Shown in pieces: positions 42,623-55,052 of a stretch of 64,000 nt of DNA. The notes beneath the pieces are model-generated. The model searched no databases and was not told the DNA's origin. It saw only the letters and a program-made list of their open reading frames with translations. The stretch is taken from the NCBI GenBank assembly GCA_965116885.1, contig OZ220741.1, positions 2,528,001 to 2,592,000 on the forward strand, written 5' to 3'. The position numbers were made by a program, and so were the translations under genes. This DNA is from Candidatus Latescibacterota bacterium (lineage in GTDB: Bacteria; Latescibacterota; UBA2968). Every line of letters starts with the position of its first letter. Position 1 is the first letter of the stretch.

Positions 42623-43387
42623 TTACCGAAGCGAGCGCGTCCCGTCGGGTTGAAACGTGTAAGTGAAATTGTAAAAACGCGATTGTGCACCAGCGGATGG
42701 TATTGCGCCACCGCCTTTGTAATAGCTCGTAAATTTGAGCTTGGCATAACGTCTATCTGCGGTGCGTATAATCAGTACGACCCCTGGATTCATCAGGATG
42801 GCATGAGGTGGAAAACCCTCAGGCCCGGTATATGTGTACCATGCTCTGCCGATAGCGGGTAATCCGGTCTGGTCCTGTACATATCCCGATTCAGGCACTG
42901 TGGAAAGGGTATCGTAGTCTGTTGCCGTGAGCGCGATTGCACCGCCTTGACCGGGACCACTGCTGCCGCTGTTGGTTAAGACGGTCGTGGATTTAAACGC
43001 GAGATCCCATTTTGTGGAATTGGAATCTGCCGGTGATACAATGGCACTGTCTCGAAGGCTGTAATACGTGAAGACGTCCTTCCTGTCCGGATCGGCGGGA
43101 ATATCCCGAACGACCACTTCTGTTAGCGTTGTAATGGGCGCAGGGGCTGGCGCGGCTTCACTGCCGAATACCTGGACAAAGAGTAAGAAGTCTGCAAAAT
43201 CAACCGTTCCATTGTTGTCGAGGTCATATAAGGCCTCTGTTGTGCCAAAAGCCTGGGCAAACTGGAGAAAGTCGGGGAAATCGACTGTGCCACTGCCGTC
43301 AAAATCGGCATTGGACGGTGTTTGTGCCAGGGCTGGCGCTGTTGCTAAAACAAAAATACAAAGGGCCAGCAAGTTTAGAGTTTTCAC
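42623..43387 (-). CDS. HmuY-family hemophore with N-terminal dockerin/EF-hand pair
   Basis: Signal peptide; DFDGSGTVDFPDF and DLDNNGTVDFADF; WDLAF, NSGSSGPGQGG, WYTY, IRTADRRYAKL..SYY. Confidence 0.8.
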   Translation of the reverse strand: MKTLNLLALCIFVLATAPALAQTPSNADFDGSGTVDFPDFLQFAQAFGTTEALYDLDNNGTVDFADFLLFVQVFGSEAAPAPAPITTLTEVVVRDIPADPDRKDVFTYYSLRDSAIVSPADSNSTKWDLAFKSTTVLTNSGSSGPGQGGAIALTATDYDTLSTVPESGYVQDQTGLPAIGRAWYTYTGPEGFPPHAILMNPGVVLIIRTADRRYAKLKFTSYYKGGGAIPSAGAQSRFYNFTYTFQPDGTRSLR

Positions 43388-43417
43388 GACGGTATCCTCC
43401 CTGAAAATTTGAAGTGA

Positions 43418-45748
43418 TTAGAAGCTCTTTGTCAATCCCACATAGAGTGTTCGCCCGGGCAGTGAAGGGGTGTAGTCCAGTCGTTTTTCATCGAATATGT
43501 TGTCGATGCCCAATTGAACTGTCGCGACTTTGCGTATGTGTTGGGATATGGAGATGTGCCAGAGGTCATAACCCGGTGCATATTCTTCTGGTGCGTCTAA
43601 GATGGTATTTAAGTTGCGGTCGCGATAACCGTATCGCCCTCGATAAACACCGCGCAAACTTCCACTAAAACCGAGTTTCTCATTGTGAAAAAAGAATCGC
43701 ATCGTGGCCATGTGTTTTGAGCGATTGTACAAACCGCCGTATTCGGATATTTCAACGTGGCGCAGCTTGTTGGTTTCTGTGTCAATTTTTACAATTTGAT
43801 CGGCTTCGATTTTGTCCAGGACTTCTTCGTCTCCGGTTTCCAAATACTGATAGCCCGCGGATAAGGTTACGCTTGAGAATGGGCGTAGCGTGAGGTCGCT
43901 TTCTATGCCTTTTGTAAAGACGCGATTGAGGTTGAAATAGGTATAGACACTCTGCCCGCTCATTTTGCGCGCGATGGGCGAGGCTTCAATGAGGTCCTGT
44001 ACGTTATTGCGGAAGAAATTGATTTTGGCGGATATACTGCGTAGGGGGGCGATTTCAATGCCTCCGTTATATGAAACCGCACTTTCAGCGCGAATCTGTT
44101 CCAGTGATTCAACATCTTGCAAGATGGCGGCAATACGGCCTTCGCGTTGTAGTAATGCCAGGCCTTCGTGCATGTATGTCGATCCCAACACGGAATAACC
44201 CACGGAGGGATTTGTAAAATCCAGATACAATTGCTGAAAGGTAGGTGCTTTGAAACCGCTGCCGATAGAGGCGCGGAGGCGCAGAGAGGGTATCGGTTTG
44301 ATGAGGAGTGCTGCTTTGGGGCTTAAACGGGTTGCGTAATCGCTGTGTGCATCAATGCGTCCGCTGAGGACGATGTTGAGATAGGTGGTGGGCAACCATT
44401 CTTCTTGGAGAAAAGCAAAGGCATTTTGCGAGGTTTGCCGTCCACCTGTGATGCGGTCTGCTTTGACCGATTCCCAAATGCCTCCTGCGCCCATTGTGAT
44501 GAGATTTGTTTTTCTCAAGAGCTTTTGGGCCTGTACTTCGGCTTTGTGATAGGTTTGGGCAAAGGTTGAGGCAGAGTAGGTCTCGCCGCTGTTGCGATAG
44601 GTGAGTTCGCTTTTGGTATGGTACCTGGTGGTATAAAATTTTCCCGTTATCTGGAAATCGGGTGTCCATTGAAAGACGATTTTGGGATTGATATTCCAAT
44701 CCGTCAGTCGCGCATCACTGTGGATGGCCTCTATCGCACCGTTTGAGTAGATCTCATCCAGGTTGTACTGGTCTTCTACAAATACCCGCGCTGCAAGCGA
44801 TAGCGTGGTTCGTTGATTGGGGCGGTAAACGATTTTGGGATTTAACGTGTAGGTGACATATTCAGGTGTGGTTGGAGAAATCGTTTCGGGGGTGTGGTCA
44901 TATCCGTCACTTTGGCCTCTGTCAATAAAGAATGAGGTTCCAAGCTCGCGTTGGTGGGTTTCTAATTCGCCGGTGATATTCAAGGAGCCGAAGCTGCCAT
45001 AGCGCGGACGCACAGATATGGAGAATGGTTTTTCAGGCATTCGCGTGATGAGGTTAATCACACCGGCGAGTGCCTCACTGCCATAGAGGGATGATGTAGG
45101 CCCTTTGACGATTTCTACTTGCTCGAGATTGTTCACCAAAAAGCGGTCCAGGTCGAGCGTTCCCGCTGTGCGGCCGATAATGGGTTCGCCATCCAGGAGA
45201 ATAAGCGTATAATCGGGGTCAAAGCCCTGCATCTGTACGCCCATGCCGTGATCTGATATGACGGCCAGCCCGGTTTGTTCTGCCAACAAGCCTCTCAGAT
45301 TTATTACGCCAGAGGCATCAATTTCTCGTTTGGTAATGACCTGCGTTTGGATGGGCGCATTTTCGACTTTGCGAGATGATTTGGTGCCTGTGACAACAAT
45401 CGGCGGTAATGCAATATTCTCGGGTGTCAACATGATGGTCATTCGAGCGGTGGTGTTTGTCGAGATTTTTATCTCTTTTTTTGTGGGATGATATCCTACC
45501 AGACGCGCTATTAGGACGTAATCACCAGCCGGCACATTGTTGAAAGAAAATCGTCCTGTCGATGAACTCACAGTTCCCAATGATGTATTTGCAATGGTGA
45601 TATTCACATTGGACAACGGCGTTCTTTCAGATGTTTGCACCACTCCTTGAATCCGACCTGTTTCATGTTTTGCAGCGACGGCATTGCATTGCCAGGTCAG
45701 GAAGAGGAGCGGTCCAATCCATTTCATTCCATTCATTATGTATCTCAT
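43418..45748 (-). CDS. TonB-dependent receptor (heme, HmuR-like) with N-terminal carboxypeptidase-regulatory-like domain
   Basis: IVVTGT, EIVKGPTSSLYGSEALAGVINLIT, GFKAP, GIDNIFD, terminal F. Confidence 0.92.
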   Translation of the reverse strand: MRYIMNGMKWIGPLLFLTWQCNAVAAKHETGRIQGVVQTSERTPLSNVNITIANTSLGTVSSSTGRFSFNNVPAGDYVLIARLVGYHPTKKEIKISTNTTARMTIMLTPENIALPPIVVTGTKSSRKVENAPIQTQVITKREIDASGVINLRGLLAEQTGLAVISDHGMGVQMQGFDPDYTLILLDGEPIIGRTAGTLDLDRFLVNNLEQVEIVKGPTSSLYGSEALAGVINLITRMPEKPFSISVRPRYGSFGSLNITGELETHQRELGTSFFIDRGQSDGYDHTPETISPTTPEYVTYTLNPKIVYRPNQRTTLSLAARVFVEDQYNLDEIYSNGAIEAIHSDARLTDWNINPKIVFQWTPDFQITGKFYTTRYHTKSELTYRNSGETYSASTFAQTYHKAEVQAQKLLRKTNLITMGAGGIWESVKADRITGGRQTSQNAFAFLQEEWLPTTYLNIVLSGRIDAHSDYATRLSPKAALLIKPIPSLRLRASIGSGFKAPTFQQLYLDFTNPSVGYSVLGSTYMHEGLALLQREGRIAAILQDVESLEQIRAESAVSYNGGIEIAPLRSISAKINFFRNNVQDLIEASPIARKMSGQSVYTYFNLNRVFTKGIESDLTLRPFSSVTLSAGYQYLETGDEEVLDKIEADQIVKIDTETNKLRHVEISEYGGLYNRSKHMATMRFFFHNEKLGFSGSLRGVYRGRYGYRDRNLNTILDAPEEYAPGYDLWHISISQHIRKVATVQLGIDNIFDEKRLDYTPSLPGRTLYVGLTKSF

Positions 45749-45792
45749 AAGAGCCTCTTTTCCAGGTATTTGCTGCTGGAAATAGTGTTGGT

Positions 45793-46212
45793 TTAGTTGA
45801 GATGAATCTGCTGCGGGTTGTGATGTATTTGAGGCAAGGGGGGTAGTATTGCACCCGAGAAATCATCGCATTCTTTTTGTATGGGCAAAATGTCTGCAAT
45901 CTCGCAGTCTTCGATAAATTCCAGGCGTTCCTGGGCGCTGGCGAGACTGTCGCTCATAAGGCAAAATTCATCTGTGGGGAGCACCAGCGTTGTTGAGCCA
46001 TAATTGACCGTAATATGTGATGCCTCAATCGTGCCCTGTTCGACCTGACTGTGTATTGCAAAAATTGATTGACACAATTTGGCGAAGCAAGTCAGGCACA
46101 TGCAGATGTTGACATAGCCGTAAAAGAGGCAAATGTGGTCTTCTTTGTAGCGATATACACAGATTGGATGTGTGCCTTCGGTGTTGTTCGCCAGGATTTG
46201 TGAATTGTCCAT
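45793..46212 (-). CDS. Hypothetical Cys/His-rich protein with internal duplication
   Basis: GGAGG RBS before ATG 46212; two H-I-x-[LV]-x-YG...F..[LM]..S units. Confidence 0.6.
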   Translation of the reverse strand: MDNSQILANNTEGTHPICVYRYKEDHICLFYGYVNICMCLTCFAKLCQSIFAIHSQVEQGTIEASHITVNYGSTTLVLPTDEFCLMSDSLASAQERLEFIEDCEIADILPIQKECDDFSGAILPPLPQIHHNPQQIHLN

Positions 46213-46377
46213 GGTGTGTTCCTCCAAATAGATGGATTGTGAGAATTTTGGTTGCATGCATGTATGAGATTTATTTTTTTTAATATGCTGCGCCTCCTTT
46301 GAGGTGTGGCTCTCTGCCATCGGTTTTCTGCTTTGACGGGCGATAACCGGTGGCATTTTTGTTTTTTGTGCAGAACG

Positions 46378-47763
46378 CTACAAGGATTGCAAAAAGGCGA
46401 GCAATGCGTCGCGGTCTGTTTTGGATAAGTTTCGCACGGCTTCGCGCGATTGTTCGGCTTCGCCGCCGTGAAACATAATGGCTTCGAGCAAGGTTCTGGC
46501 TCTGCCATCGTGTAAGTAGGCTGGAACGCCGCTGACGGTTTCCGTGAGTCCAATGCCCCACAGTGGGGGCGTTTTCCACTCGCGGCCATCGGCTTCGTAG
46601 TCCGGGCGATTATCGGCGAGGGCTTCGCCCATGTCGTGGAGCAACAAATCTGTGTAGGGGTGAATGATTTGATCCGATAGTGACGAGATGCTGTGGCTGC
46701 CTGTTTTGAATGTGGTGGTATGGCAACTTGCACAACCGGTTGATTCAAAGAGTGCTTCGCCTCGCAATGTCTGTGGGTCGTCCCACAGACGTCGTGCGGG
46801 TACGGCGAGTGTTTGTAAGTAAAATGTGGTGATGTCCAGTGTCTCCTGTAGGATTTCCGGATCGTCGTTGCGGCCGTCGTGCTGGGGTTGTCCCAGGACG
46901 GATTCCCGAGGGAAATAGGGGTTGGTAACGCCCATGTCTTCGTTGTATGCGCCAGCGGTCTGTTGCAAGAGATCGGGGTTGTTGGCTTTTAGTCCAAAGC
47001 GCCCCAGTTCCATTTGGCCCGTTCGGAAATTGTACACGTAATTGGGGCGGCCCGATATGCCGTCCCGGTTGGCATCTCCGGGATCTGATAGGGCGAGGAT
47101 ATCGGCCTCGGGGATGGCTTCCAGGAGGCCGCGTCCAAATACGGGCGGGGCCATGCGCGCGGACAGGAGTACGCCAGCGGGCAGTGGTTGATATGCGTCA
47201 ACAATGGTGTAGATGGGGTGTTTTAAGTAAACCTGTTCGCCATCGGATAGGGTTTCCGTTGTTTCGTAAAAGCTGACTTGAACACGCGCTTCGAGTGCGA
47301 CGCCATAGTTTGAGCGGTCGCCGAGTTGGACGCCAAAGCCGGGGACAGGTACAGGGCCGCCGTGTGGGGTGAATCCGGGCAGGCTGACGCGCATGAGCAT
47401 GGAGCCGACAAAGGGTGGTTCAGCGCCAAATGCACCGCGTCCCCGTCCGTCGCGCAGATGACATCCCACGCAAGAGGTGTGACTAAATACGGGACCCAGG
47501 CCGGGGTTGACGTCTGCAGGAGCCGTGACAAAGACCTGTTCAAAGGCGAAATCCCCCGCAAAAAATTGGTCGAGTTCGTCGGGTGAGAGTGTTGGTATGG
47601 GCATTTCAAAAGCCTGGCTGGATGCGTCGAAGACGGTTGCCGCCTCCCCGCCAGATAGGGCACTGTCCTCTGAGGGAGTAGGCTCAACTGGATTTTTGCT
47701 GCTACACGCAGAGAAGAACAGCATTGCAGCTATGGTGGATAAAATATGGCGATCTATTTTCAT
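46378..47763 (-). CDS. Di-heme oxidoreductase family lipoprotein (DUF1111)
   Basis: Lipobox FSAC; CVGCH and CASCH; GLGP, YTDLLLHDMG, TPPLWGIG, YLHDGRARTL. Confidence 0.9.
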   Translation of the reverse strand: MKIDRHILSTIAAMLFFSACSSKNPVEPTPSEDSALSGGEAATVFDASSQAFEMPIPTLSPDELDQFFAGDFAFEQVFVTAPADVNPGLGPVFSHTSCVGCHLRDGRGRGAFGAEPPFVGSMLMRVSLPGFTPHGGPVPVPGFGVQLGDRSNYGVALEARVQVSFYETTETLSDGEQVYLKHPIYTIVDAYQPLPAGVLLSARMAPPVFGRGLLEAIPEADILALSDPGDANRDGISGRPNYVYNFRTGQMELGRFGLKANNPDLLQQTAGAYNEDMGVTNPYFPRESVLGQPQHDGRNDDPEILQETLDITTFYLQTLAVPARRLWDDPQTLRGEALFESTGCASCHTTTFKTGSHSISSLSDQIIHPYTDLLLHDMGEALADNRPDYEADGREWKTPPLWGIGLTETVSGVPAYLHDGRARTLLEAIMFHGGEAEQSREAVRNLSKTDRDALLAFLQSL

Positions 47764-47855
47764 AATTCACTAAAGACACTGAACAGTTCACGACGCGAAG
47801 AATAGCCTGCCCAACCCTACCTCAGGACGGAGGAGTTGGACAATGCAAGATCTGG

Positions 47856-48926
47856 CTACTGTTCTGCTACTACGAGAGACATAACATCCCCTTCGAGCGT
47901 TTGTTGCAAGGTTGCAATGGCCTGTTGTGCCGCTGTTATTTGTGCGGCATCGGTGGCGAGGGCGTCGCGGAATGGGAAGGAGATTTTGCCAATTTCTGTG
48001 ATGGTCGCCTGAATTTCCGCTTTGACACGCTGGTCGAGGGCGGAGTTTTTGCTTTTGATAAATTCATCGAGGCCCATTGCTTCAACATTGTGTCCCCCTT
48101 CATAAACATTTTGAATGCTGCGCATGTTGTCTTGAAAATCGAGGAGGGAGTTAAAGCTGAATTGCGATTCCACCAGGCGCGTGTCTTGTTCGGTAAAGGG
48201 ATCGGCTATTTTGCCGTTTCCGACTTCGTCGGCAATGCCAACCATGCCGTTGACCATTTCCTGGACAGCGGCTTTTTGCGTAGTGTAGGCACTGCTCCCC
48301 GCGCCGGCATTGACCACCTGTGCGCGGAAGTTTTCGCCCGAGGCTATCCAACTCGTGTGCAGTGCTACTGCCGCATCTACGAGCAATTCTGTTGCCGCGA
48401 TCAAATAATCGTATTGACGCGGGGTAAAGTCGTCGATGGTTTTGCGGCTGCCCTCGTCAAAGAGCAAAAATTCAATGGTATGAAATCCTTTGAGTTCGTT
48501 GGCGAGGTTGTTGACGGATGTTTTGGTGAGGGGATCGTTGCTGCCCAGGACACCTTCGAGGTCTGTGCGGTTGACCGGCCAGGAATCCAGCGCGGGATCA
48601 TAGCCGCTAAAATCAACGGGTCCGAACAAAAAACCCTCGCTTTGTTCCCAGGGAATACGCGATGCTACCCATTTTGCTCGGGCGGTTGCCAGCGTAGCTG
48701 TCGAGGGATTGTTCTTGAGATTGTTCACCGCGGCGAGGAGATCTCTGGCGGCGGTGTCGAGGTGTTTGTAGGTCGGGATGACTGTTTTGTCGGCAAAGTC
48801 TGCCAAGATGGGTGAAAAATCGTATCCGGGATCGGGTTCTGGTTCTGGCGCGACCGGGCTTGCACCCTTGCTGCTGCATGCCGCGAGGGATAGGGCGAGG
48901 ATGATACTGAGGGTAATGTGTTTCAT
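47856..48926 (-). CDS. Imelysin/IrpA family iron-regulated lipoprotein
   Basis: Lipobox LAAC; WEQSE.F.FGP, DSWP, KGFHTIEFLLF (GxHxxE), ESQFSFNS. Confidence 0.9.
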   Translation of the reverse strand: MKHITLSIILALSLAACSSKGASPVAPEPEPDPGYDFSPILADFADKTVIPTYKHLDTAARDLLAAVNNLKNNPSTATLATARAKWVASRIPWEQSEGFLFGPVDFSGYDPALDSWPVNRTDLEGVLGSNDPLTKTSVNNLANELKGFHTIEFLLFDEGSRKTIDDFTPRQYDYLIAATELLVDAAVALHTSWIASGENFRAQVVNAGAGSSAYTTQKAAVQEMVNGMVGIADEVGNGKIADPFTEQDTRLVESQFSFNSLLDFQDNMRSIQNVYEGGHNVEAMGLDEFIKSKNSALDQRVKAEIQATITEIGKISFPFRDALATDAAQITAAQQAIATLQQTLEGDVMSLVVAEQ

Positions 48927-48944
48927 GGTGATTCTCCTTAAAAG

Positions 48945-50186
48945 TTAGAATTGAAAGCCGAGTGCAAAACTGGCGGTATTTTCGCCGTTGAAGTTGCCCG
49001 TGCCCAACCGACGCATGGCATAGTCGCCTTTCAGGACGACGGCATTGCCCATGGTGTAGTTGATGCCGAGCGTGTAAACGCGGCGTTGGAAACGCGGGTT
49101 GTCAAAAAAGTTCTGTGGCATTTCGGCCATTGTATCGTAGCTATCAAATCGAAAGAACAGGTGGCATTGATCCTCTTTACGCGAAGTGAAGAAGGGCATG
49201 ATGTCGTAACCGGCTTCGGCGTAAAATGCGTACGCTGCACTGGCAACGGGCGTTCTCAAGACGTCGAGGTTGTTGGATAATGTGCGGTTGCGCTCGCTGA
49301 CAATGTCCGCATTTTGCAGGTTTCCGTAGAGGTACATGCCCTGTGCGCGGAAGCGATTGTATCGCAGCACAGCGTGAACGTCAAAAATGGATATGTAGGC
49401 GTCCGTATCTTTCATGTCGGGTTTGGGGCGGTTGTCGGCGCTGTTGCCGCGGTAGCCCGATACGCCAAAGGTGAGACCGTTGATGAGGCGGTAGTCCAAC
49501 CGGCCCACAAGGGCCATGTTGGTTGCGCGGACTTCTTCAAAGCGCGTTTGATGCCCGCCCACAATCCAGTTTTGCGAATCGAAGCCCGTGGCGTCTAAGC
49601 CGTTGACGAGTTGGAGTTGGTAGGTCAGGCGATTGGTATGACCGCTGATTTCAATACCTGTTTCGTGCCATATTGCTGGAATAACCGCGGTCTCCGATTC
49701 GGAGCGGCGGGTGCCAAAAAAATCTGTGGGGTGGTATTGCTCTGTGGTGAGGCCCACCGCGACGTAGAAGTGGCCCAGGCGGATGTTGAAGGCGTCGCTA
49801 AATTCGCGTTTGATGTAGAGTTCTTCGAGGATGACTTCTCCGCCTTTTTCCACTTCGGTTTCGTATTCGCCGAATTCCTCGTATTCGATTTCGAGGGCAC
49901 CGCCTGTGCCGCCGTGTTCGATTTCTACTTCGGTTTCCAGTTCGACACCGCGCAGCAGACGCAATTCCATTTCGAGTGCCAAACGCGCAATATCTATGGT
50001 GGCGCGGCTATCTGGCGGCGAACCCGCTGGGCCGCTTTTCTGGTCGGGACCGTAATCAAAGTGGGAGTAGATGAGTTCACCGTATCCCGTGATTTTAATT
50101 TTGGGTGCTGACTTATGGTCTTCTGCCATGATGCTTATTGGCAGCGCGAGCGTTAGACAGATGCGAAATAAAAGAAGTCGGTTCAT
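48945..50186 (-). CDS. Outer-membrane porin associated with imelysin operons
   Basis: Signal peptide; EIEHGG, acidic EYEEFGEYETEVEKGGEV loop, IPAIWHETG, terminal F. Confidence 0.8.
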   Translation of the reverse strand: MNRLLLFRICLTLALPISIMAEDHKSAPKIKITGYGELIYSHFDYGPDQKSGPAGSPPDSRATIDIARLALEMELRLLRGVELETEVEIEHGGTGGALEIEYEEFGEYETEVEKGGEVILEELYIKREFSDAFNIRLGHFYVAVGLTTEQYHPTDFFGTRRSESETAVIPAIWHETGIEISGHTNRLTYQLQLVNGLDATGFDSQNWIVGGHQTRFEEVRATNMALVGRLDYRLINGLTFGVSGYRGNSADNRPKPDMKDTDAYISIFDVHAVLRYNRFRAQGMYLYGNLQNADIVSERNRTLSNNLDVLRTPVASAAYAFYAEAGYDIMPFFTSRKEDQCHLFFRFDSYDTMAEMPQNFFDNPRFQRRVYTLGINYTMGNAVVLKGDYAMRRLGTGNFNGENTASFALGFQF

Positions 50187-50206
50187 AAACCTCCCCTGTG
50201 TGAGTA

Positions 50207-50328
50207 TTGACGCTTAAAAGGCGTGCTGTTATATTGTGTTTTGCAAGCGCAGAGGGTTTGATCTCTCTGTCGCGTGCGTGCGGGTGATCGGTGATGGCCG
50301 GCAAGTCAGAACCGATCGCCCTTTTTTT
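50207..50328 (+). ncRNA. Putative antisense small RNA unit (promoter, about 85-nt transcript, terminator)
   Basis: TTGACG-N17-TATATT (50207-50235); hairpin 50282-50321 with T7. Confidence 0.45.
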
Positions 50329-51083
50329 CATGTCCGACGGCGCTTTCGGGTGCGCCACCAGATGACCAGGCCAGAGATGGACAGGCCGATCAGGCCCCAG
50401 GCGGCGATGTCGTAGAGATAGACAAACCAGTCGGCGAAGAAATAGCCGGTATGAATCTGGTGCATGATCGTGTAGAGATCTCGTCCGGGTTTTGCGGATT
50501 GGCCTACAGAGGCCCAGGTTTTTCCGCCATTGGAACTGGTGAGCAGGCCGCCCGATGTCCACAGGTTCAAATTTTGGGTGGAGCCTATGCCAATGCGCTG
50601 GAGGCGAATGCCTTCGGCAAGAGGCATAAATCCGAGGCCGACTTGTTCCCATACGATGCCGCCGTCGGTTGAGCGAATGAGGCCCAGGTCTTCGAGGACG
50701 ACGTATATGTGATCGGGATTGTCGGGCGCGTAGGCGATATCCACAGCGCGTTCTGCCGCGAAGAGCATTGGGACTTCGGTCCAGGTTTTTCCGCCGTCTT
50801 CAGAAGAATAAAGTGCCGAGCGCGTGCCGCGATAGAGGTGTTGGGGATCGCGGGGGTCAACCGCAAATGAGAGGGTGCGTTCAGAGGGCGCGCCGAGCAG
50901 ACTGGGGTGATTGAGCAAAAAACCCGAGACAGCGAGGAGTGATAAAAATATGAGTGCGCCGATGCCGACATAGCGATGGAGTTTGCGGAAAAATTCGGCG
51001 CGTTTTTTGCGCGTTTTGGGCTGTTTCTTGTGAAGCGGGATGGTTTTGTTCCGACGTGTGTAGGCTTGAGGTGTAGCACTCAT
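50328..51083 (-). CDS. PepSY-associated TM protein with inserted BNR/Asp-box repeats
   Basis: RKLHRYVG, SGFLLNH, SEDGGKTW/STDGGIVW/SSNGGKTW, HQIHTG, SGLVIWW. Confidence 0.8.
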   Translation of the reverse strand: MSATPQAYTRRNKTIPLHKKQPKTRKKRAEFFRKLHRYVGIGALIFLSLLAVSGFLLNHPSLLGAPSERTLSFAVDPRDPQHLYRGTRSALYSSEDGGKTWTEVPMLFAAERAVDIAYAPDNPDHIYVVLEDLGLIRSTDGGIVWEQVGLGFMPLAEGIRLQRIGIGSTQNLNLWTSGGLLTSSNGGKTWASVGQSAKPGRDLYTIMHQIHTGYFFADWFVYLYDIAAWGLIGLSISGLVIWWRTRKRRRT

Positions 51084-51667
51084 TGGGATTCTTTTTTTGG
51101 GTAAATGACATCGAGGACGGTGAGAACTCTCTTGACGCCCGCGTTTAAGGCGCGCACCGATAGGGTTGCGCCACTGATGCCGATGATGTCGCGGTTGAGA
51201 CGAATGTGATGATTGACATTTTTATTTCTATATTGGGTCAAGAACCGCTGGCGCTTGACCTGACCGCCTCGCGATTCGCGATAGACCATGATCCATACAC
51301 CGCCAACGCGGTGGTCGGGTTTGACCTTGACGATGAAGGTGATGGGTTTGTAGAGGCCAATTTGATTCGCGATGATCGCGTATCCCTGATGTCGGTCATT
51401 TTTTTTTGCCTGAAAAATCGTGAAATCGGGTTCTTCGAGGCGCCACCCCAACCGCCGTTCAATGCGCCGCCGTTCTTGTGGGGTTGGGGTCCAGACTTCG
51501 CTCCAGAGCGTGTCTGCATCTGGGAAGGCTTTTTTTAGAGCCTGTTCTTCTGTGAGATATACAGTGATAGCCTCTGGGCCATCGGGACCCTGCGCGAATC
51601 CGAGTCCCGACAGGAGGCAGACCATGATACAGAGCACGTACTTATTTTTTATCACTGTTTTCTCCAA
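51080..51667 (-). CDS. Extracytoplasmic FMN-binding protein
   Basis: Signal peptide; YRESRG, DIIGISGATLS flavinylation motif. Confidence 0.85.
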   Translation of the reverse strand: MEKTVIKNKYVLCIMVCLLSGLGFAQGPDGPEAITVYLTEEQALKKAFPDADTLWSEVWTPTPQERRRIERRLGWRLEEPDFTIFQAKKNDRHQGYAIIANQIGLYKPITFIVKVKPDHRVGGVWIMVYRESRGGQVKRQRFLTQYRNKNVNHHIRLNRDIIGISGATLSVRALNAGVKRVLTVLDVIYPKKESQ

Positions 51668-51676
51668 CTCCTTTTT

Positions 51677-52795
51677 TTAGAAATACGATGCAATCGAAAA
51701 GAAGAGGCGTCCAATGCCGTCGCCTTTGTCGCCATTTGCCGGGGTCTTATAGGTGGTGTTGTAATCCAGCTTGAAAGCCGTGTCTTCAACGGGGCGGAAG
51801 TTCAAACCAAAGGTGATCCCGTATTCCGAATCGCCACTTACCGAGGTATCAAAATCGACCCAGTCCCAGCGCGCGATGGCTGTGAACACGGATTCTGACA
51901 AGAAATGATCGTGCCCAAAATGAAAGTTGGTTTGTGCATAAGCACCGCGCTGGTCGCCATTAAATCCATCGGCGGTGGCTTGTCCGTATTCGCCCTGAAG
52001 TTCAAAGGGTCCCTGTGTAAATTGCGCGTCGGCTCCGAAGATGGAGAGGCGGTTGTTGCCCGCATCGTCGTATTTGCCCGTGTGAAGAGATGCGCCGAGG
52101 TCAATGCCCAGTCGCGGGCTGAAGCCGAATCGTCCGACGAGTGCTTTGTCGTGGTTGTTGTCCGATTTTTGGCTGCCCCGTCCGCTTCGAATGCGGAGAT
52201 TGCCGCTGGAGTTGACTTTTTCGTTGAATCCGTTGACGAGGTAGATTTCATAGGTTGCTACGGAGAGTTCAGAGGGGTAAAAGGTGCCAAAGAAGCCCAT
52301 TCCCGCTTCTGAGAGGGTGGATGGCATGATCTGACGGTTCACGGTGGGGCGTTCGGTGAGGTCGTTGAGCGGGCTATCGTGCAAGAGGTTGAAGCGCCCA
52401 AGTGGAGAGAGTATGACACCGCCCCGATAGTTGAAGGCTTCTGTAAAGGTGAAGTCCATGATGGCGAATTCGAGTTTGATTTCGCCATCGGTGTTGCTGC
52501 TGCCTTTGACGAGCCCCCCGTGTTCAAATTCGATTTCGCATGAAACGTGAATTCGGTCGGTGATTTCCGAAAAGATGAAGGGGATAAAACGGTGCTGGTC
52601 AAAGGTGCTGTCTTTTCCTTCTGTCCATTCAAATTCGTGGTCAATATATCCGCCGATAGCTACATTTCTGCCCATGCGTTTGATATAGGGTTTGTCGTAT
52701 ATGCTGCCGGGCAATTCGGGCCGTTTGTTTTCTTCGGCTATGGTGGGTAGTGCGAGTGTGAGAGATAAGAACGAAACGAGCAGTTTGAAGCGCAT
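51677..52795 (-). CDS. Outer-membrane porin (OprO/P-like)
   Basis: Signal peptide; IGGY, EIEFEHGG, GRFNLLHDSP, GLNFRP, terminal YF; ATG 52795 after AGGAG. Confidence 0.78.
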   Translation of the reverse strand: MRFKLLVSFLSLTLALPTIAEENKRPELPGSIYDKPYIKRMGRNVAIGGYIDHEFEWTEGKDSTFDQHRFIPFIFSEITDRIHVSCEIEFEHGGLVKGSSNTDGEIKLEFAIMDFTFTEAFNYRGGVILSPLGRFNLLHDSPLNDLTERPTVNRQIMPSTLSEAGMGFFGTFYPSELSVATYEIYLVNGFNEKVNSSGNLRIRSGRGSQKSDNNHDKALVGRFGFSPRLGIDLGASLHTGKYDDAGNNRLSIFGADAQFTQGPFELQGEYGQATADGFNGDQRGAYAQTNFHFGHDHFLSESVFTAIARWDWVDFDTSVSGDSEYGITFGLNFRPVEDTAFKLDYNTTYKTPANGDKGDGIGRLFFSIASYF

Positions 52796-52835
52796 GCTTT
52801 TCTCCTGTGTAAAACACAAGACCATTCAAAGTGGG

Positions 52836-52946
52836 TTGACATGGTGCGCGAGAAACCCTACTTTGAATGTGAGTTGTGCTTTTGGTGTGACTCAGACCAT
52901 CTTCCGCCGGGCTGGCAGGCTCTTAAAGCGGGAGGTGGTCTTTTTT
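52836..52946 (+). ncRNA. Putative antisense small RNA unit (promoter, about 75-nt transcript, terminator)
   Basis: TTGACA-N17-TACTTT (52836-52864); hairpin 52894-52941 with T run. Confidence 0.45.
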
Positions 52947-52956
52947 GTTTGGTGGT

Positions 52957-53034
52957 CTATAAAAATGTTTTACTAACAAAACACTCGCCCAACAAATAAA
53001 ACAAGTGTTGGGCTTATGTCAATATTTTTTTAAT
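52957..53034 (-). promoter_or_regulatory. Promoter/operator of the iron operon, copy 1
   Basis: Minus-strand TTGACA; CCCAACA-N11-TGTTGGG and TGTTTT-N6-AAAACA palindromes. Confidence 0.6.
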
Positions 53035-53305
53035 AATTCAGGGGATATGTCAACATATTTTTTAATAACTGATGTTACGCAGTTTGTCGAAAAGTACGCC
53101 ATTTTTGCACAATAATATAGAGTTCTGTGTAAGATCAGTTATTAGTCTATTCCGATTTTTAGTTGGAAAGCACCAGAATGAATGAGTGAATCATCCGTAC
53201 ACTAAAATCGGTCGGGCCACCAAACGTGTGGATGACCGGGTGGAAAGAGAGCTTCCAGTACAGGAATAATTTCCTCTGTTATTCTCACACATTACATTTG
53301 GGACT

Positions 53306-54025
53306 TCAGAGTCGCTCATTCGCTGTCGATTCCCGGTTTTGCATCGCCACGAAATGGCGTTCCACCCGGCCTGTCGCCAACATCGTACCGATGAGCAGTA
53401 ACCATAGAACGAAGGCTGGCCCACTGAAATGATGCATACCGATCACTGCGTCTGTCCATATAAATTGCATGGCGATGCCGATAACTGCAGATGCGGGTGC
53501 GACATATCTGAGTTGACCGCCGACTTTCCACTGGTACCGCGCCGCGAGGATGAGTGCCAATCCAGCTGCCGAGAAACCGATTTTGCCGGTGAACCATCGA
53601 AGGTATTCGGTCGTCTCTGCCGTGGCGGTCACTTCTGGAGCAATGGCAACAAGCGCGATTGTACACGCCCCGGAAATGATCGTAAAAAGTCCAGACACAG
53701 CGAACAGCACCGGTACCAGAGGCGTACCCAGTCGCTCCTTGATAATCCAGGTTCTCGACAAAAACCACGCACCTGCAACCAGCGCAACCCCCGAGAGCAG
53801 CCTGCCGACACCTCCCGTAGCGTAAAGGCCACCACTCTCTGAGATCGCGACGAGCGATTCAGCAAACGTGGATTGATCCGCGTCGGCAGCGACTCGTCCA
53901 ATAACGGCAACACCTGTTGCTAATGCAGTCAATATCAGAGATAGCCCTCCTTTGCGAGTGCTGGCATCCTGTGGCCGATCAACTATCTCCTCGCCCGAAG
54001 TTGATGGATGCGATGATTCTTTCAT
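53306..54025 (-). CDS. Hypothetical multi-pass membrane protein
   Basis: About 6 hydrophobic segments; AAGGAG RBS. Confidence 0.7.
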   Translation of the reverse strand: MKESSHPSTSGEEIVDRPQDASTRKGGLSLILTALATGVAVIGRVAADADQSTFAESLVAISESGGLYATGGVGRLLSGVALVAGAWFLSRTWIIKERLGTPLVPVLFAVSGLFTIISGACTIALVAIAPEVTATAETTEYLRWFTGKIGFSAAGLALILAARYQWKVGGQLRYVAPASAVIGIAMQFIWTDAVIGMHHFSGPAFVLWLLLIGTMLATGRVERHFVAMQNRESTANERL

Positions 54026-54058
54026 AGTGATTACTCCTTTTATGTGGGTACAGCGGAG

Positions 54059-54628
54059 TCAATCCGTCCAGTTCAGCACCTCTTCGAGAGGTTTGCGCCT
54101 CGGTTCAGGTATTTCATCGGGATATCCGGTATAGAAAAATCCGATGATGTATTCGTCCTCGGTATCTACACCCAACAATTTGTAGGTGTTTTCTTCCAGC
54201 GTGATCGGCCCCGTGCTCCACTGCATGCCAACCCCTTCTGCCCAGGCGGCCAACTGTACATTTTGCATGGCGCAACACGCAGCCGCATAATCTTCTCTGT
54301 TCTTGATGTCATCGCCATCTTGCAAACACACCACCGCAATAATTGTGGGCTTTGACATGAACTTGTCATAACCGGCATCTTTTAATATGCGCCTGGCCTC
54401 GTCGCTGGCACCTTCAGCCGCTTTTGCCTCCTGAATTTCGCTGTAGCGTTGCGCCAGTATTTCTTTGGTTTCTTCTCCCAGGACTACAAACCGCCACGGT
54501 TCTGTCAAATGGTGATTGGGTGCCCAAAGACCGGCCTCAAAAGTTTTTTCAATCACATCTTTGGGCACACCACCCGGTTTGAACTTAAAAATTGTGCGCC
54601 GTGTGTGAATGGCTTCCAAAACGTCCAT
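54059..54628 (-). CDS. Nitroreductase family protein
   Basis: AIHTRRTI, WAPNHHLTEPWRF, AMQNVQLAAWAEGVG. Confidence 0.9.
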   Translation of the reverse strand: MDVLEAIHTRRTIFKFKPGGVPKDVIEKTFEAGLWAPNHHLTEPWRFVVLGEETKEILAQRYSEIQEAKAAEGASDEARRILKDAGYDKFMSKPTIIAVVCLQDGDDIKNREDYAAACCAMQNVQLAAWAEGVGMQWSTGPITLEENTYKLLGVDTEDEYIIGFFYTGYPDEIPEPRRKPLEEVLNWTD

Positions 54629-54704
54629 TGCTTGCCTCCTGTTGGGTTTCGGTAAAAGAAAGTCTTAAAGTTTGGTTTGGTAGTAATCTTTTTTGTTTTG
54701 TGAA

Positions 54705-54784
54705 CTATAGAATTGTTTTGCTGGTAAAACAATCGCCCAACAAACAAAACAAATGTTGGGTATATGTCAACAATTTTTTTAATA
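54705..54784 (-). promoter_or_regulatory. Promoter/operator, copy 2, upstream of nitroreductase
   Basis: Near-identical to 52957-53034, both palindromes conserved. Confidence 0.6.
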
Positions 54785-54845
54785 GTTTAGAGGATAAAGC
54801 AACATTTTTTTAATAATTAGCCGTCAGTGGTCAGCAAAAATCTCC

Positions 54846-54950
54846 TGGATCGCAGTTCGGCCCTGTCCCTGCGGGAGTAAGCAGGGGATCTTGCCGCGAT
54901 GACGATCGCTATGCCCGTTGTCACGCCTGCATGCCTTAAGCAGGCGTCCA
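54846..54950. repeat. Two oppositely oriented GTCA...TCCA REP-like palindromes
   Basis: TGTCACGCCTGCATGCCTTAAGCAGGCGTCCA (54919-54950) and inverted TGGATCGC...GCGATGAC (54846-54903); related to 33790. Confidence 0.6.
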
Positions 54951-55052
54951 AAAAGAGGGAGGCTGATCGCTCTTGGCTCATCACTTTACACTTTGCACTT
55001 TGTACATAACCGTCTATTTTGCAGAGGAGTTTTGGCAATGAGGAGGTACGAA

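Follow-up and report, generated by a model that had tools for sequence, protein, structure and literature searches.

The region described here is a 64,000-nucleotide stretch of contig OZ220741.1 from Candidatus Latescibacterota bacterium (the window), which carries on its minus strand an eight-gene iron-uptake cluster encoding two porins, an FMN_bind protein, a PepSY_TM/BNR protein, an imelysin, a di-haem oxidoreductase (DHOR), a protein of 139 amino acids (aa) and a TonB-dependent receptor (Table 1). The locus belongs to a complete 5.56-Mb genome (98.4% complete), and contigs identical to parts of it are present in runs labelled sponge metagenome. At three non-coding places within this operon the opposite strand bears a promoter or promoter-like site followed by two hairpins and a T-tract: in the leader of porin 2 (unit 2), between PepSY_TM and porin 1 (unit 1) and between DHOR and the 139-aa gene (unit 3). 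Judging from the sequence and its comparison with relatives, the units are likely to be real, conserved, structured + strand RNAs with promoters of their own. The best reading of their function, to which we give a probability of roughly 0.55, is that they control the operon in cis as antisense RNAs. A preliminary description of this DNA had placed two such units upstream of the two porin genes; both are there, but the set is larger, as it also comprises the third unit (46248-46368) and, in two relatives, a unit-1-like copy before another TonB receptor gene.

Table 1. Positions of the operon, its genes and the features discussed, in the numbering of the window
Feature	Position	Strand	Remarks
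Target operon	43418-52795	-	eight-gene iron-uptake cluster; genes listed from first to last
Porin 2	51677-52795	-	real start ATG at 52795, preceded by AGGAG
FMN_bind protein	51080-51667	-
PepSY_TM/BNR protein	50328-51083	-
BBP2-type porin 1	48945-50186	-
Imelysin	47856-48926	-
DHOR	46378-47763	-	stop codon 46378-46380
139-aa protein	45793-46212	-	real start ATG at 46212, preceded by GGAGG
TonB-dependent receptor	43418-45748	-
Unit 2 promoter	-35 52836-52841; -10 52859-52864	+	TTGACA-N17-TACTTT; read in the sequence
Unit 2 RNA	52866-52952	+	predicted from ~52871 to ~52950; hairpin 1, terminator hairpin and T-tract
Unit 2 hairpin 1	52871-52893	+
Unit 2 terminator hairpin	52894-52940	+	T6 from 52941; -26.9 kcal/mol; apex GGGCTGGCWGGCT
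Unit 1 promoter	50207-50235	+	TTGACG-N17-TATATT; 10/12 consensus matches, TG before -10
Unit 1 RNA	50240-50328	+	abuts the PepSY_TM stop codon
Unit 1 hairpin 1	~50244-50281	+
Unit 1 terminator hairpin	50282-50321	+	T7 at 50322-50328; -25.5 kcal/mol
Unit 3 promoter-like site	46248-46277	+	TTGGTT-N18-TATTTT; in relatives TTGCAT-N17-TATGTT or TTGGAC-N17-TATTTT
Unit 3 RNA	46281-46368	+	in the spacer from the DHOR stop codon to ATG 46212
Unit 3 hairpin 1	46287-46310	+
Unit 3 terminator hairpin	46315-46355	+	followed by T-tract
Operon promoter (predicted)	-35 53022-53017; -10 52999-52994	-	TTGACA-N17-TTATTT; from a conservation boundary and paralogous modules
Palindrome TGTTTTACTAACAAAACA	52966-52983		10 nucleotides (nt) downstream of the operon -10
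Inverted repeat	52823-52869		arms 52823-52836 and 52855-52869; encloses the unit 2 promoter
Paralogous promoter/operator module	54680-54790	-	upstream of the nitroreductase gene (54059-54628); paralogue of 52946-53060

A covariance model of unit 2 found one copy in each of 16 of the 53 genomes of the order, all belonging to one family: 12 of the 21 genomes of its own genus (this genome included), the single genome of a second genus and all three of a third. In 15 of these genomes the unit precedes the porin 2 orthologue, and in G004 it precedes porin 1 (G000 denotes the genome under study, other G numbers the genomes of its relatives and L numbers individual loci). The sequence from the start codon to ~53022 can be aligned across the orthologous loci of 11 genomes of the genus and one genome of another genus, and in all 16 orthologues TTGAC[AT]-N17-TAnnnT stops 1 nt ahead of the model match, with promoter spacers that vary and in the third genus are unrelated. 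When 15 sequences from the three genera were aligned by fitting to the covariance model, 98.8% of 409 cells were paired and 13 of the 28 pairs were changed on both sides, which none of 500 shuffles reached; slid controls gave 37-48%. A model-independent MAFFT alignment of 12 sequences gave 99.1% pairing and double changes at four pairs. The unit as a whole folds at -35.4 kcal/mol (z -3.1) on the + strand, compared with -19.7 kcal/mol on the minus strand. Its promoter was not listed by a consensus scan because TACTTT matches the consensus at only 3 of 6 positions.

The strand on which the unit 2 hairpins form can be read from their wobble pairs. Among the 15 sequences, 98.8% of the cells are standard pairs on the + strand as against 71.9% on the minus strand, with 110 G·U and no A·C cells. 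The MAFFT alignment agrees with what the preliminary description had said of the wobbles, namely that they pair on the + strand only: 328 of 331 cells pair on the + strand and 234 of 331 on the minus strand, and there are 94 G·U and 0 A·C cells in the 12 genomes. Since G·U is so favoured and A·C is missing, the hairpins exist on the + strand only, and the complementary stretches of the mRNA form weakened structures; G·U makes up 9 of the 28 pairs in this genome. The apex GGGCTGGCWGGCT is invariant over the three genera, while the stem beneath it has been replaced with covariation. A 52-aa open reading frame (ORF) on the + strand (52841-52999) was rejected as a small protein, as it begins inside the promoter spacer and 1-nt indels disrupt the frame in G003 and G007.

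Unit 1 is confined to the genus, where its model found 12 strong copies (84-113 bits). All 12 orthologues have TTGAC[GA]-N16/17-TATATT, and the spacers between the hexamers are unrelated in G010, G016 and G001. The whole unit folds at -47.5 kcal/mol (z -4.1) on the + strand versus -33.1 kcal/mol on the minus strand. Across 14 sequences, a set that includes two weaker unit-1-like copies (42 bits) from which most of the double changes in hairpin 1 come, 96.4% of the cells are paired and six pairs are changed on both sides. Read on the minus strand, pairing falls to 86.2%, and the 47 G·U cells compare with 7 A·C.

Unit 3 was found with the unit 2 model, whose + strand match to it spans 46282-46366 with a score of 21 bits (E 0.002 in the window). 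With a model of its own, 11 genomes of the genus yielded 11 strong copies (52-116 bits), and in the ten copies checked for position (L151, L153-L156, G000, G002, G003, G007 and G015) it stands behind DHOR every time, whichever TonB receptor comes next. It folds at -40.7 kcal/mol (z -6.25) on the + strand and -25.1 kcal/mol on the minus strand, and 98.5% of its cells are paired on the + strand compared with 76.9% on the minus strand, with 59 G·U and 1 A·C. The sequence is near-invariant (~90-100% identity versus 67-88% at third codon positions), and the changes that do occur in the stems are all one-sided and pass through G·U on the + strand. The promoter-like form TTGnnn-N17/18-TAT[GT]TT is present in 10 of 11 orthologues; the exception is the copy in G001, which is decayed and has lost both the promoter and the 3' arm of the terminator. 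The longest ORF at this place (45793-46356, 187 aa) is over-extended across unit 3, the real product having 139 aa; a Pfam search with this protein gave no match.

In all three units the terminator hairpin has a predicted energy of -22 to -27 kcal/mol and is followed by five to seven T residues on the + strand only, and conservation equals or exceeds that of the third codon positions of the flanking genes. The same type of promoter also precedes a tRNA gene in this genome. Much of the preliminary description is borne out by these data. The near-consensus promoters at 50207 and 52836 and the long hairpins with T-tracts behind them are present, each terminator hairpin coming after a first hairpin; the conservation in orthologous loci, on which its proposal had been made to depend, is found for promoters (16/16, 12/12 and 10/11) and structures alike; and the covariance-model search across relatives that it had suggested returned unit 2 in 16 genomes and unit 1 in 12 strong copies.

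Its claim that the units are paralogous did not hold up. Local alignments of unit 1 with unit 2 (z -0.45 for the full unit, -0.14 for the RNA part) and with unit 3 (z -0.80 and -0.15) are no better than shuffles, and the higher values for units 2 and 3 (z 1.7 and 2.4) are due to the 3' arm and T-tract only. The unit 2 model misses unit 1 altogether and, as noted, finds unit 3 at 21 bits only. The apical motif GGC-YGGCAR-GYY that was said to be common to the two porin-associated units is present in this genome, but it is no more than expected by chance and is not kept in unit 1 of G002 and G003 (GGACCGCCAAG). A repeat or mobile element was also considered and rejected, units 1 and 2 being unique in the 5.56-Mb genome. 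Rfam 15 gave no match to the units on either strand, at E up to 1, over 43000-48000 and 48000-55000.

The predicted sense promoter of the operon faces unit 2. Its transcript would start at about 52987 and have a leader of ~190 nt, of which approximately +35 to +116 would be complementary to unit 2. Distant loci without the unit have TTGACA-N17-TATAAT (L030) or TTGACT-N17-TATAGT (L029) at the same aligned place. The palindrome behind the promoter is probably the operator of a DtxR-family metalloregulator. It conforms to an 18-bp consensus, TGTTTTAyTAryAAAACA, located 10 nt behind a TTGACA-N17-TTATkT promoter, which occurs at the porin 2 operon, at the nitroreductase gene (54714-54731) and at a locus for a DtxR-family repressor with feoA and feoB (G000:C1:4008177). 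A scan of the genome found 14 sites with at most one mismatch per half-site and, among them, four with at most one mismatch in all, and the palindrome probably defines a small metal regulon. The elements of the module come in the order promoter, 10 nt, palindrome, A-rich tract, and since the same module recurs before the nitroreductase and the DtxR-repressor-feoAB genes, the operon promoter is likely to be metal-regulated as well. The nitroreductase copy keeps the A/T-tract and is without antisense hairpins. The genome scan placed no operator palindrome at the three unit promoters, where a different box is conceivable.

The position of the units relative to this module is recurrent. Without exception, unit 2 is flanked by the conserved promoter/operator module on one side and by the first gene on the other, and this holds for G004 too, in which porin 1 comes first. 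G010, G012, G014 and G016 lack the first three-gene module, and there unit 1 is found in the leader of porin 1, directly behind the promoter/operator module. The unit-1-like copy of G002 and G015 lies in the leader of another TonB receptor gene and is again followed by the promoter/operator module. These arrangements therefore point to a common design, which consists of a metal-regulated sense promoter, an operator, an antisense unit that stops shortly before the operator, and then the ribosome-binding site of an outer-membrane channel gene. In the locus under study, unit 1 appears from such comparisons to have become intercistronic through the fusion of two operons. G015 is cleanly without unit 1, the PepSY stop codon abutting the porin 1 ribosome-binding site some 30 nt from the porin 1 start; PepSY and porin 1 would therefore share a transcript, and the unit 1 spacer would here be part of the mRNA. 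G020 still has traces of the 3' end of PepSY and of the terminator arm of unit 2, which marks it as a deletion derivative. Two observations concern the surroundings of the module itself. A tandem direct repeat of ~30 nt at 53015-53075 (tatgtcaatattttttt-aataa and tatgtcaacatatttttt-aataa) gives rise to two minus-strand TTGACA boxes, of which the proximal one alone is conserved in relatives. At L179 (G010) an array of more than 10 tandem copies of the heptamer GGCAAGA, ~330-430 nt upstream of porin 1, adjoins the module.

The unit 2 promoter lies within an inverted repeat, as the preliminary description had pointed out. The arms of the repeat have been replaced between genera with their complementarity kept. 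As the left arm is upstream of the unit 2 -35 hexamer, the repeat can only be an RNA hairpin on the mRNA, and the predicted hairpin belongs to the minus-strand leader, where it immediately precedes the ribosome-binding site. Strand evidence from 13 distinct sequences is mixed: L020, L027 and L049 place G·U on the mRNA strand, L046 does the reverse, and the others do not discriminate. G004 has a degenerate repeat and retains the promoter.

What might such units do to the operon? We propose that they are three separate small RNA genes of ~80-90 nt, each transcribed from a sigma-70-type + strand promoter of its own and folding into two hairpins, of which the second would serve as an intrinsic terminator. 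Unit 2 would sit in the ~190-nt leader, with the predicted DtxR-type operator/promoter on one side and the first gene's ribosome-binding site on the other, and units 1 and 3 in intercistronic spacers. Each unit is perfectly complementary to the predicted operon mRNA over its whole length and overlaps no ribosome-binding site, ending 55-70 nt from start codons or ribosome-binding sites. A well-folded antisense RNA would pair in cis with its poorly folded complement in the mRNA, and the resulting duplex of ~80 bp would be cut by RNase III. Cleavage at unit 2 would take off the 5' triphosphate end together with a 5' hairpin formed by the operator palindrome, and at units 1 and 3 it would uncouple the gene modules from each other. 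The face-to-face promoters, ~115 nt apart, may add transcriptional interference. The net effect would be to damp leaky expression of outer-membrane channels when iron is sufficient and to sharpen the switch once the repressor leaves. We infer the direction of this effect, damping while the sense promoter is weakly active, by analogy with RNA-alpha (discussed below).

Pairing in cis followed by cleavage is favoured over other modes of antisense action because the units avoid the ribosome-binding sites, masking of the antisense site is without effect on their predicted accessibility, RNase III is present and Hfq was not found. RNase III is encoded in the genome (130 bits), and a perfect duplex of 80 nt is a natural substrate of this enzyme. 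The Hfq family PF17209 gave no match in this genome (98.4% complete), in a search whose control run matched 5 of 14 reference genomes. Translational control through occlusion of the ribosome-binding site was considered and rejected: the distance of 55-70 nt from the start codons, along with the lack of any change upon masking, makes direct translational control unlikely.

Several results weigh against cis-antisense control, or at least go beyond what it explains. The unit RNAs and the sense start site are themselves predictions from sequence. Pure pairing in cis would require neither an invariant apex in unit 2 nor a near-invariant sequence in unit 3; unit 3, moreover, has no pair changed on both sides in its alignment and the weakest of the three promoters in this genome. 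Masking of the antisense site left the predicted accessibility of the ribosome-binding site unchanged in nine leaders (0.19-0.58 vs 0.16-0.49, with a masked stretch that was too long at its 5' side). Terminator-like hairpins between co-directional genes are not peculiar to this locus, for a genome-wide scan based on crude longest-ORF gene calls counted 173 in antisense and 253 in sense orientation, and at -22 kcal/mol or below 19 antisense and 29 sense, a weak bias towards sense. A strict TTGACN-N16-18-TAnnnT promoter within 150 nt upstream of an antisense terminator was found in 6 of the 173 cases versus 7.1 expected from the intergenic background, which is no enrichment. Units 1 and 2 are among these six, as are a tRNA gene and members of another family resembling small RNAs (sRNAs). 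Given the lack of genome-wide enrichment, the case for the units rests on the comparison with relatives. Antisense-oriented terminators, perhaps antisense RNAs, may be common in this organism. The other sRNA-like family is multi-copy (G000:C1, ~1938144-1938180, 1939165-1939201 and 1833844-1833880 on the minus strand and 5488356-5488392 on the + strand). Its copies combine a small hairpin (CTCAAG..CTTGAG or AAGCTC..GAGCTT) with a common terminator, GCCGCYGACA...TGTCGGCGGC, and T5; three of the four have TTGACA-N17-TAnnTT upstream, and two are antisense within one + strand gene cluster.

The invariance of the unit 2 apex above a covarying stem, and that of unit 3 relative to third codon positions, would be expected if the units were trans-acting RNAs of the RyhB/PrrF or MicF/MicC type, placed beside channel genes for co-regulation only and having other mRNAs as their true targets; micF, which lies divergently upstream of the porin gene ompC, offers a precedent for such placement. 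The preliminary description had likewise offered RyhB-analogous trans sRNAs. We consider this unlikely, as Hfq was not found, no metalloregulator palindrome is present at the unit promoters, and each unit is single-copy and always inside a transcribed spacer of the operon. Nor was complementarity to the operon's start regions seen above background. When duplexes were folded with the nine start regions of the locus, their energies ranked 219-1315 among 1500 background start regions, in a crude comparison that used a simple duplex fold without accessibility, and a likewise crude search found the cis site to be the sole perfect complement of the unit 2 apex in the genome, with none of 14 one-mismatch sites in a sense 5' region. 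Reciprocal targeting of the other porin, after the manner of MicF and MicC, was rejected, since no duplex stands out (again by duplex fold without accessibility). The frequency of antisense terminator-like hairpins in the genome, with promoters co-occurring at background level, would fit another explanation, in which the units are orientation-specific insulators whose + strand terminators block stray antisense transcription into the operator/promoter or upstream genes, the hexamers being incidental; the T-tract that the conserved promoter/operator module keeps even without a hairpin, in the nitroreductase leader, is also in keeping with it. Insulators would leave it unexplained that hairpin 1, though no terminator, is likewise conserved and biased towards G·U on the + strand, that the -35 and -10 hexamers stay at a fixed distance while their spacers diverge fully, and that the decayed copy in G001 has lost terminator arm and promoter together. 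On balance this explanation seems slightly less probable than action in trans.

The two remaining alternatives we regard as about equally improbable, more so than the preceding two. If the conserved structures belonged to the minus strand, as a leader or riboswitch-like sensor, processing sites or stabilisers, there would be no separate RNA. Minus-strand folds do beat shuffles (z -3.2, -2.1 and -3.35), and the inverted repeat, possible only as an mRNA hairpin, has arms that were replaced yet remained complementary and shows mRNA-strand G·U in L020, L027 and L049. Yet the units have 110, 47 and 59 G·U cells on the + strand as against 0, 7 and 1 A·C, so that the same pairs are mismatched in the mRNA; T-tracts follow the hairpins on the + strand only, Rfam has no match on either strand, and L046 favours the + strand even for the inverted repeat. 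A variant of control in cis is that the antisense RNA triggers premature termination of the nascent operon transcript instead of its cleavage, by attenuation of the RnaG/icsA or pT181 type. Leader folds from this genus predict that AAAGCACAAC, a part of the antisense site, pairs with GUUGUGUUU, which comes directly behind the hairpin of the inverted repeat; binding of the antisense RNA would free a hairpin followed by the U-rich GUCUUGUGUUUU. RnaG is reported to act by this mechanism at a gene for an outer-membrane protein, where the promoters are convergent (PMC2879508). The U-rich tract is missing, however, from the leaders of other genera (L053, L049 and L050) and from L046, and nothing similar is present at units 1 and 3. 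Cis-antisense control with cleavage by RNase III remains our preferred reading.

As the preliminary description had noted, the units recall the antisense control of plasmids, being small, independent + strand units antisense to the predicted operon transcript. The countertranscripts of plasmids (CopA/CopT of R1, RNA I of ColE1, RNAIII of pIP501, and pT181) are short, structured, terminator-ended RNAs encoded in the leader of the mRNA that they control, with a convergent promoter, and recognise their target through hairpin loops. The units are similarly short, highly structured, terminator-ended and leader-encoded with a convergent promoter. Plasmid countertranscripts control replication genes, whereas the units are chromosomal, lie behind a metal-regulated promoter and comprise three non-homologous RNAs at equivalent places. 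RyhB and PrrF are trans-acting, repressed by Fur via a box at their own promoters and mostly dependent on Hfq; the units share with them the small size, the terminator and the link to iron homeostasis, and none of the other three features was found for them. For units 1 and 3 the best model is GadY of Escherichia coli, a cis-antisense RNA in the spacer of the co-transcribed gadX and gadW genes, where pairing is said to lead to RNase III-dependent cleavage of the bicistronic mRNA. GadY reportedly overlaps the 3' untranslated region of gadX, acts positively and is unrelated to iron or outer-membrane channels, and it has no sequence or structural similarity to the units.

RnaG reportedly has a length of several hundred nt and covers the beginning of the coding region, in contrast to the units, which measure ~80-90 nt, have an intrinsic terminator of their own and avoid the ribosome-binding site. 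Like them, it is a cis-antisense RNA in the leader of an outer-membrane protein gene, icsA of the Shigella flexneri virulence plasmid. A strong antisense promoter there opposes a weaker sense promoter, the convergent promoters were shown to interfere with each other, and control combines RNA pairing with promoter interference, an arrangement to which that of the units can be likened (PMC2879508). The terminator-forming switch of icsA has no conserved counterpart at the units. RNA-alpha, from the fatDCBA operon of plasmid pJM1 of Vibrio anguillarum, is comparable in being an antisense RNA inside an iron-transport operon, and it is reported to reduce, under iron-rich conditions, the expression of genes for outer-membrane and periplasmic transport (PMC7968456, PMC5524678). 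It lies within the fatB coding region and its synthesis is described there as Fur-dependent (PMC7968456, PMC5524678), whereas the units occupy non-coding spacers, have no regulator box at their promoters, number three and come from an unrelated phylum.

If the units work as proposed, the metal-regulated genes for outer-membrane uptake in this lineage would be under double control, from a repressor and from countertranscripts built into the operon, in a modular design that is reused with unrelated RNAs. A further suggestion, which we put forward tentatively and hold to be possible rather than probable, is that the promoter/operator module and its embedded countertranscript form a portable switch cassette. 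Such a cassette would set a metal-repressed sense promoter against a constitutive antisense promoter that makes a short, G·U-rich RNA able to fold on its own strand only; three unrelated RNAs would have been recruited to the same slot before different channel genes, and the cassette would move with gene modules between operons. It would then be a chromosomal counterpart of plasmid copy-control circuits and might afford an all-or-none response to iron starvation in a phylum without Hfq. Cis-encoded countertranscripts are a known kind of regulator, and the novelty here lies in the three families of RNA, in the phylum, in the slot that recurs behind a metal-regulated promoter and in how extreme the strand-specific use of G·U is. 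A full-text search for Latescibacteria with small RNA returned unrelated matter only and no work on RNA regulators in Latescibacterota, and a search joining antisense RNA, iron uptake, outer membrane, leader and convergent promoter returned known systems only. The locus offers three candidate RNAs with clear boundaries, and the strand-specific G·U bias (up to 9 of 28 pairs) may serve as a signature by which antisense RNA genes can be found in uncultured organisms from sequence.

In its gene content the cluster has a modular make-up. Among 12 relatives fetched, the porin 2-FMN_bind-PepSY module is present in all, the porin 1-imelysin-DHOR module in seven and the pair of 139-aa and TonB-receptor genes in one (G002). 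Porin 1 and porin 2 are distant paralogues (24% identity, E 2e-10). Assembled contigs from RNA libraries (four runs from three studies, labelled sponge or metagenome) cover coding parts only, 50342-52848, and two of them, from two studies, stop at 52845 and 52848. They include no part of unit 1, of the unit 2 RNA or of 52849-53100, and as such contigs cannot show small RNAs, strands or ends, they are neutral on the expression of the units and the length of the leader. The cluster is shortened in G017, G009, G005 and G019, ending after PepSY_TM at L019, L022 and L023 and after DHOR at L125. At these four loci a convergent gene with its own terminator occupies the slot of unit 1 or unit 3, and the C-terminus of its product, read by eye, is a ferritin-like candidate.

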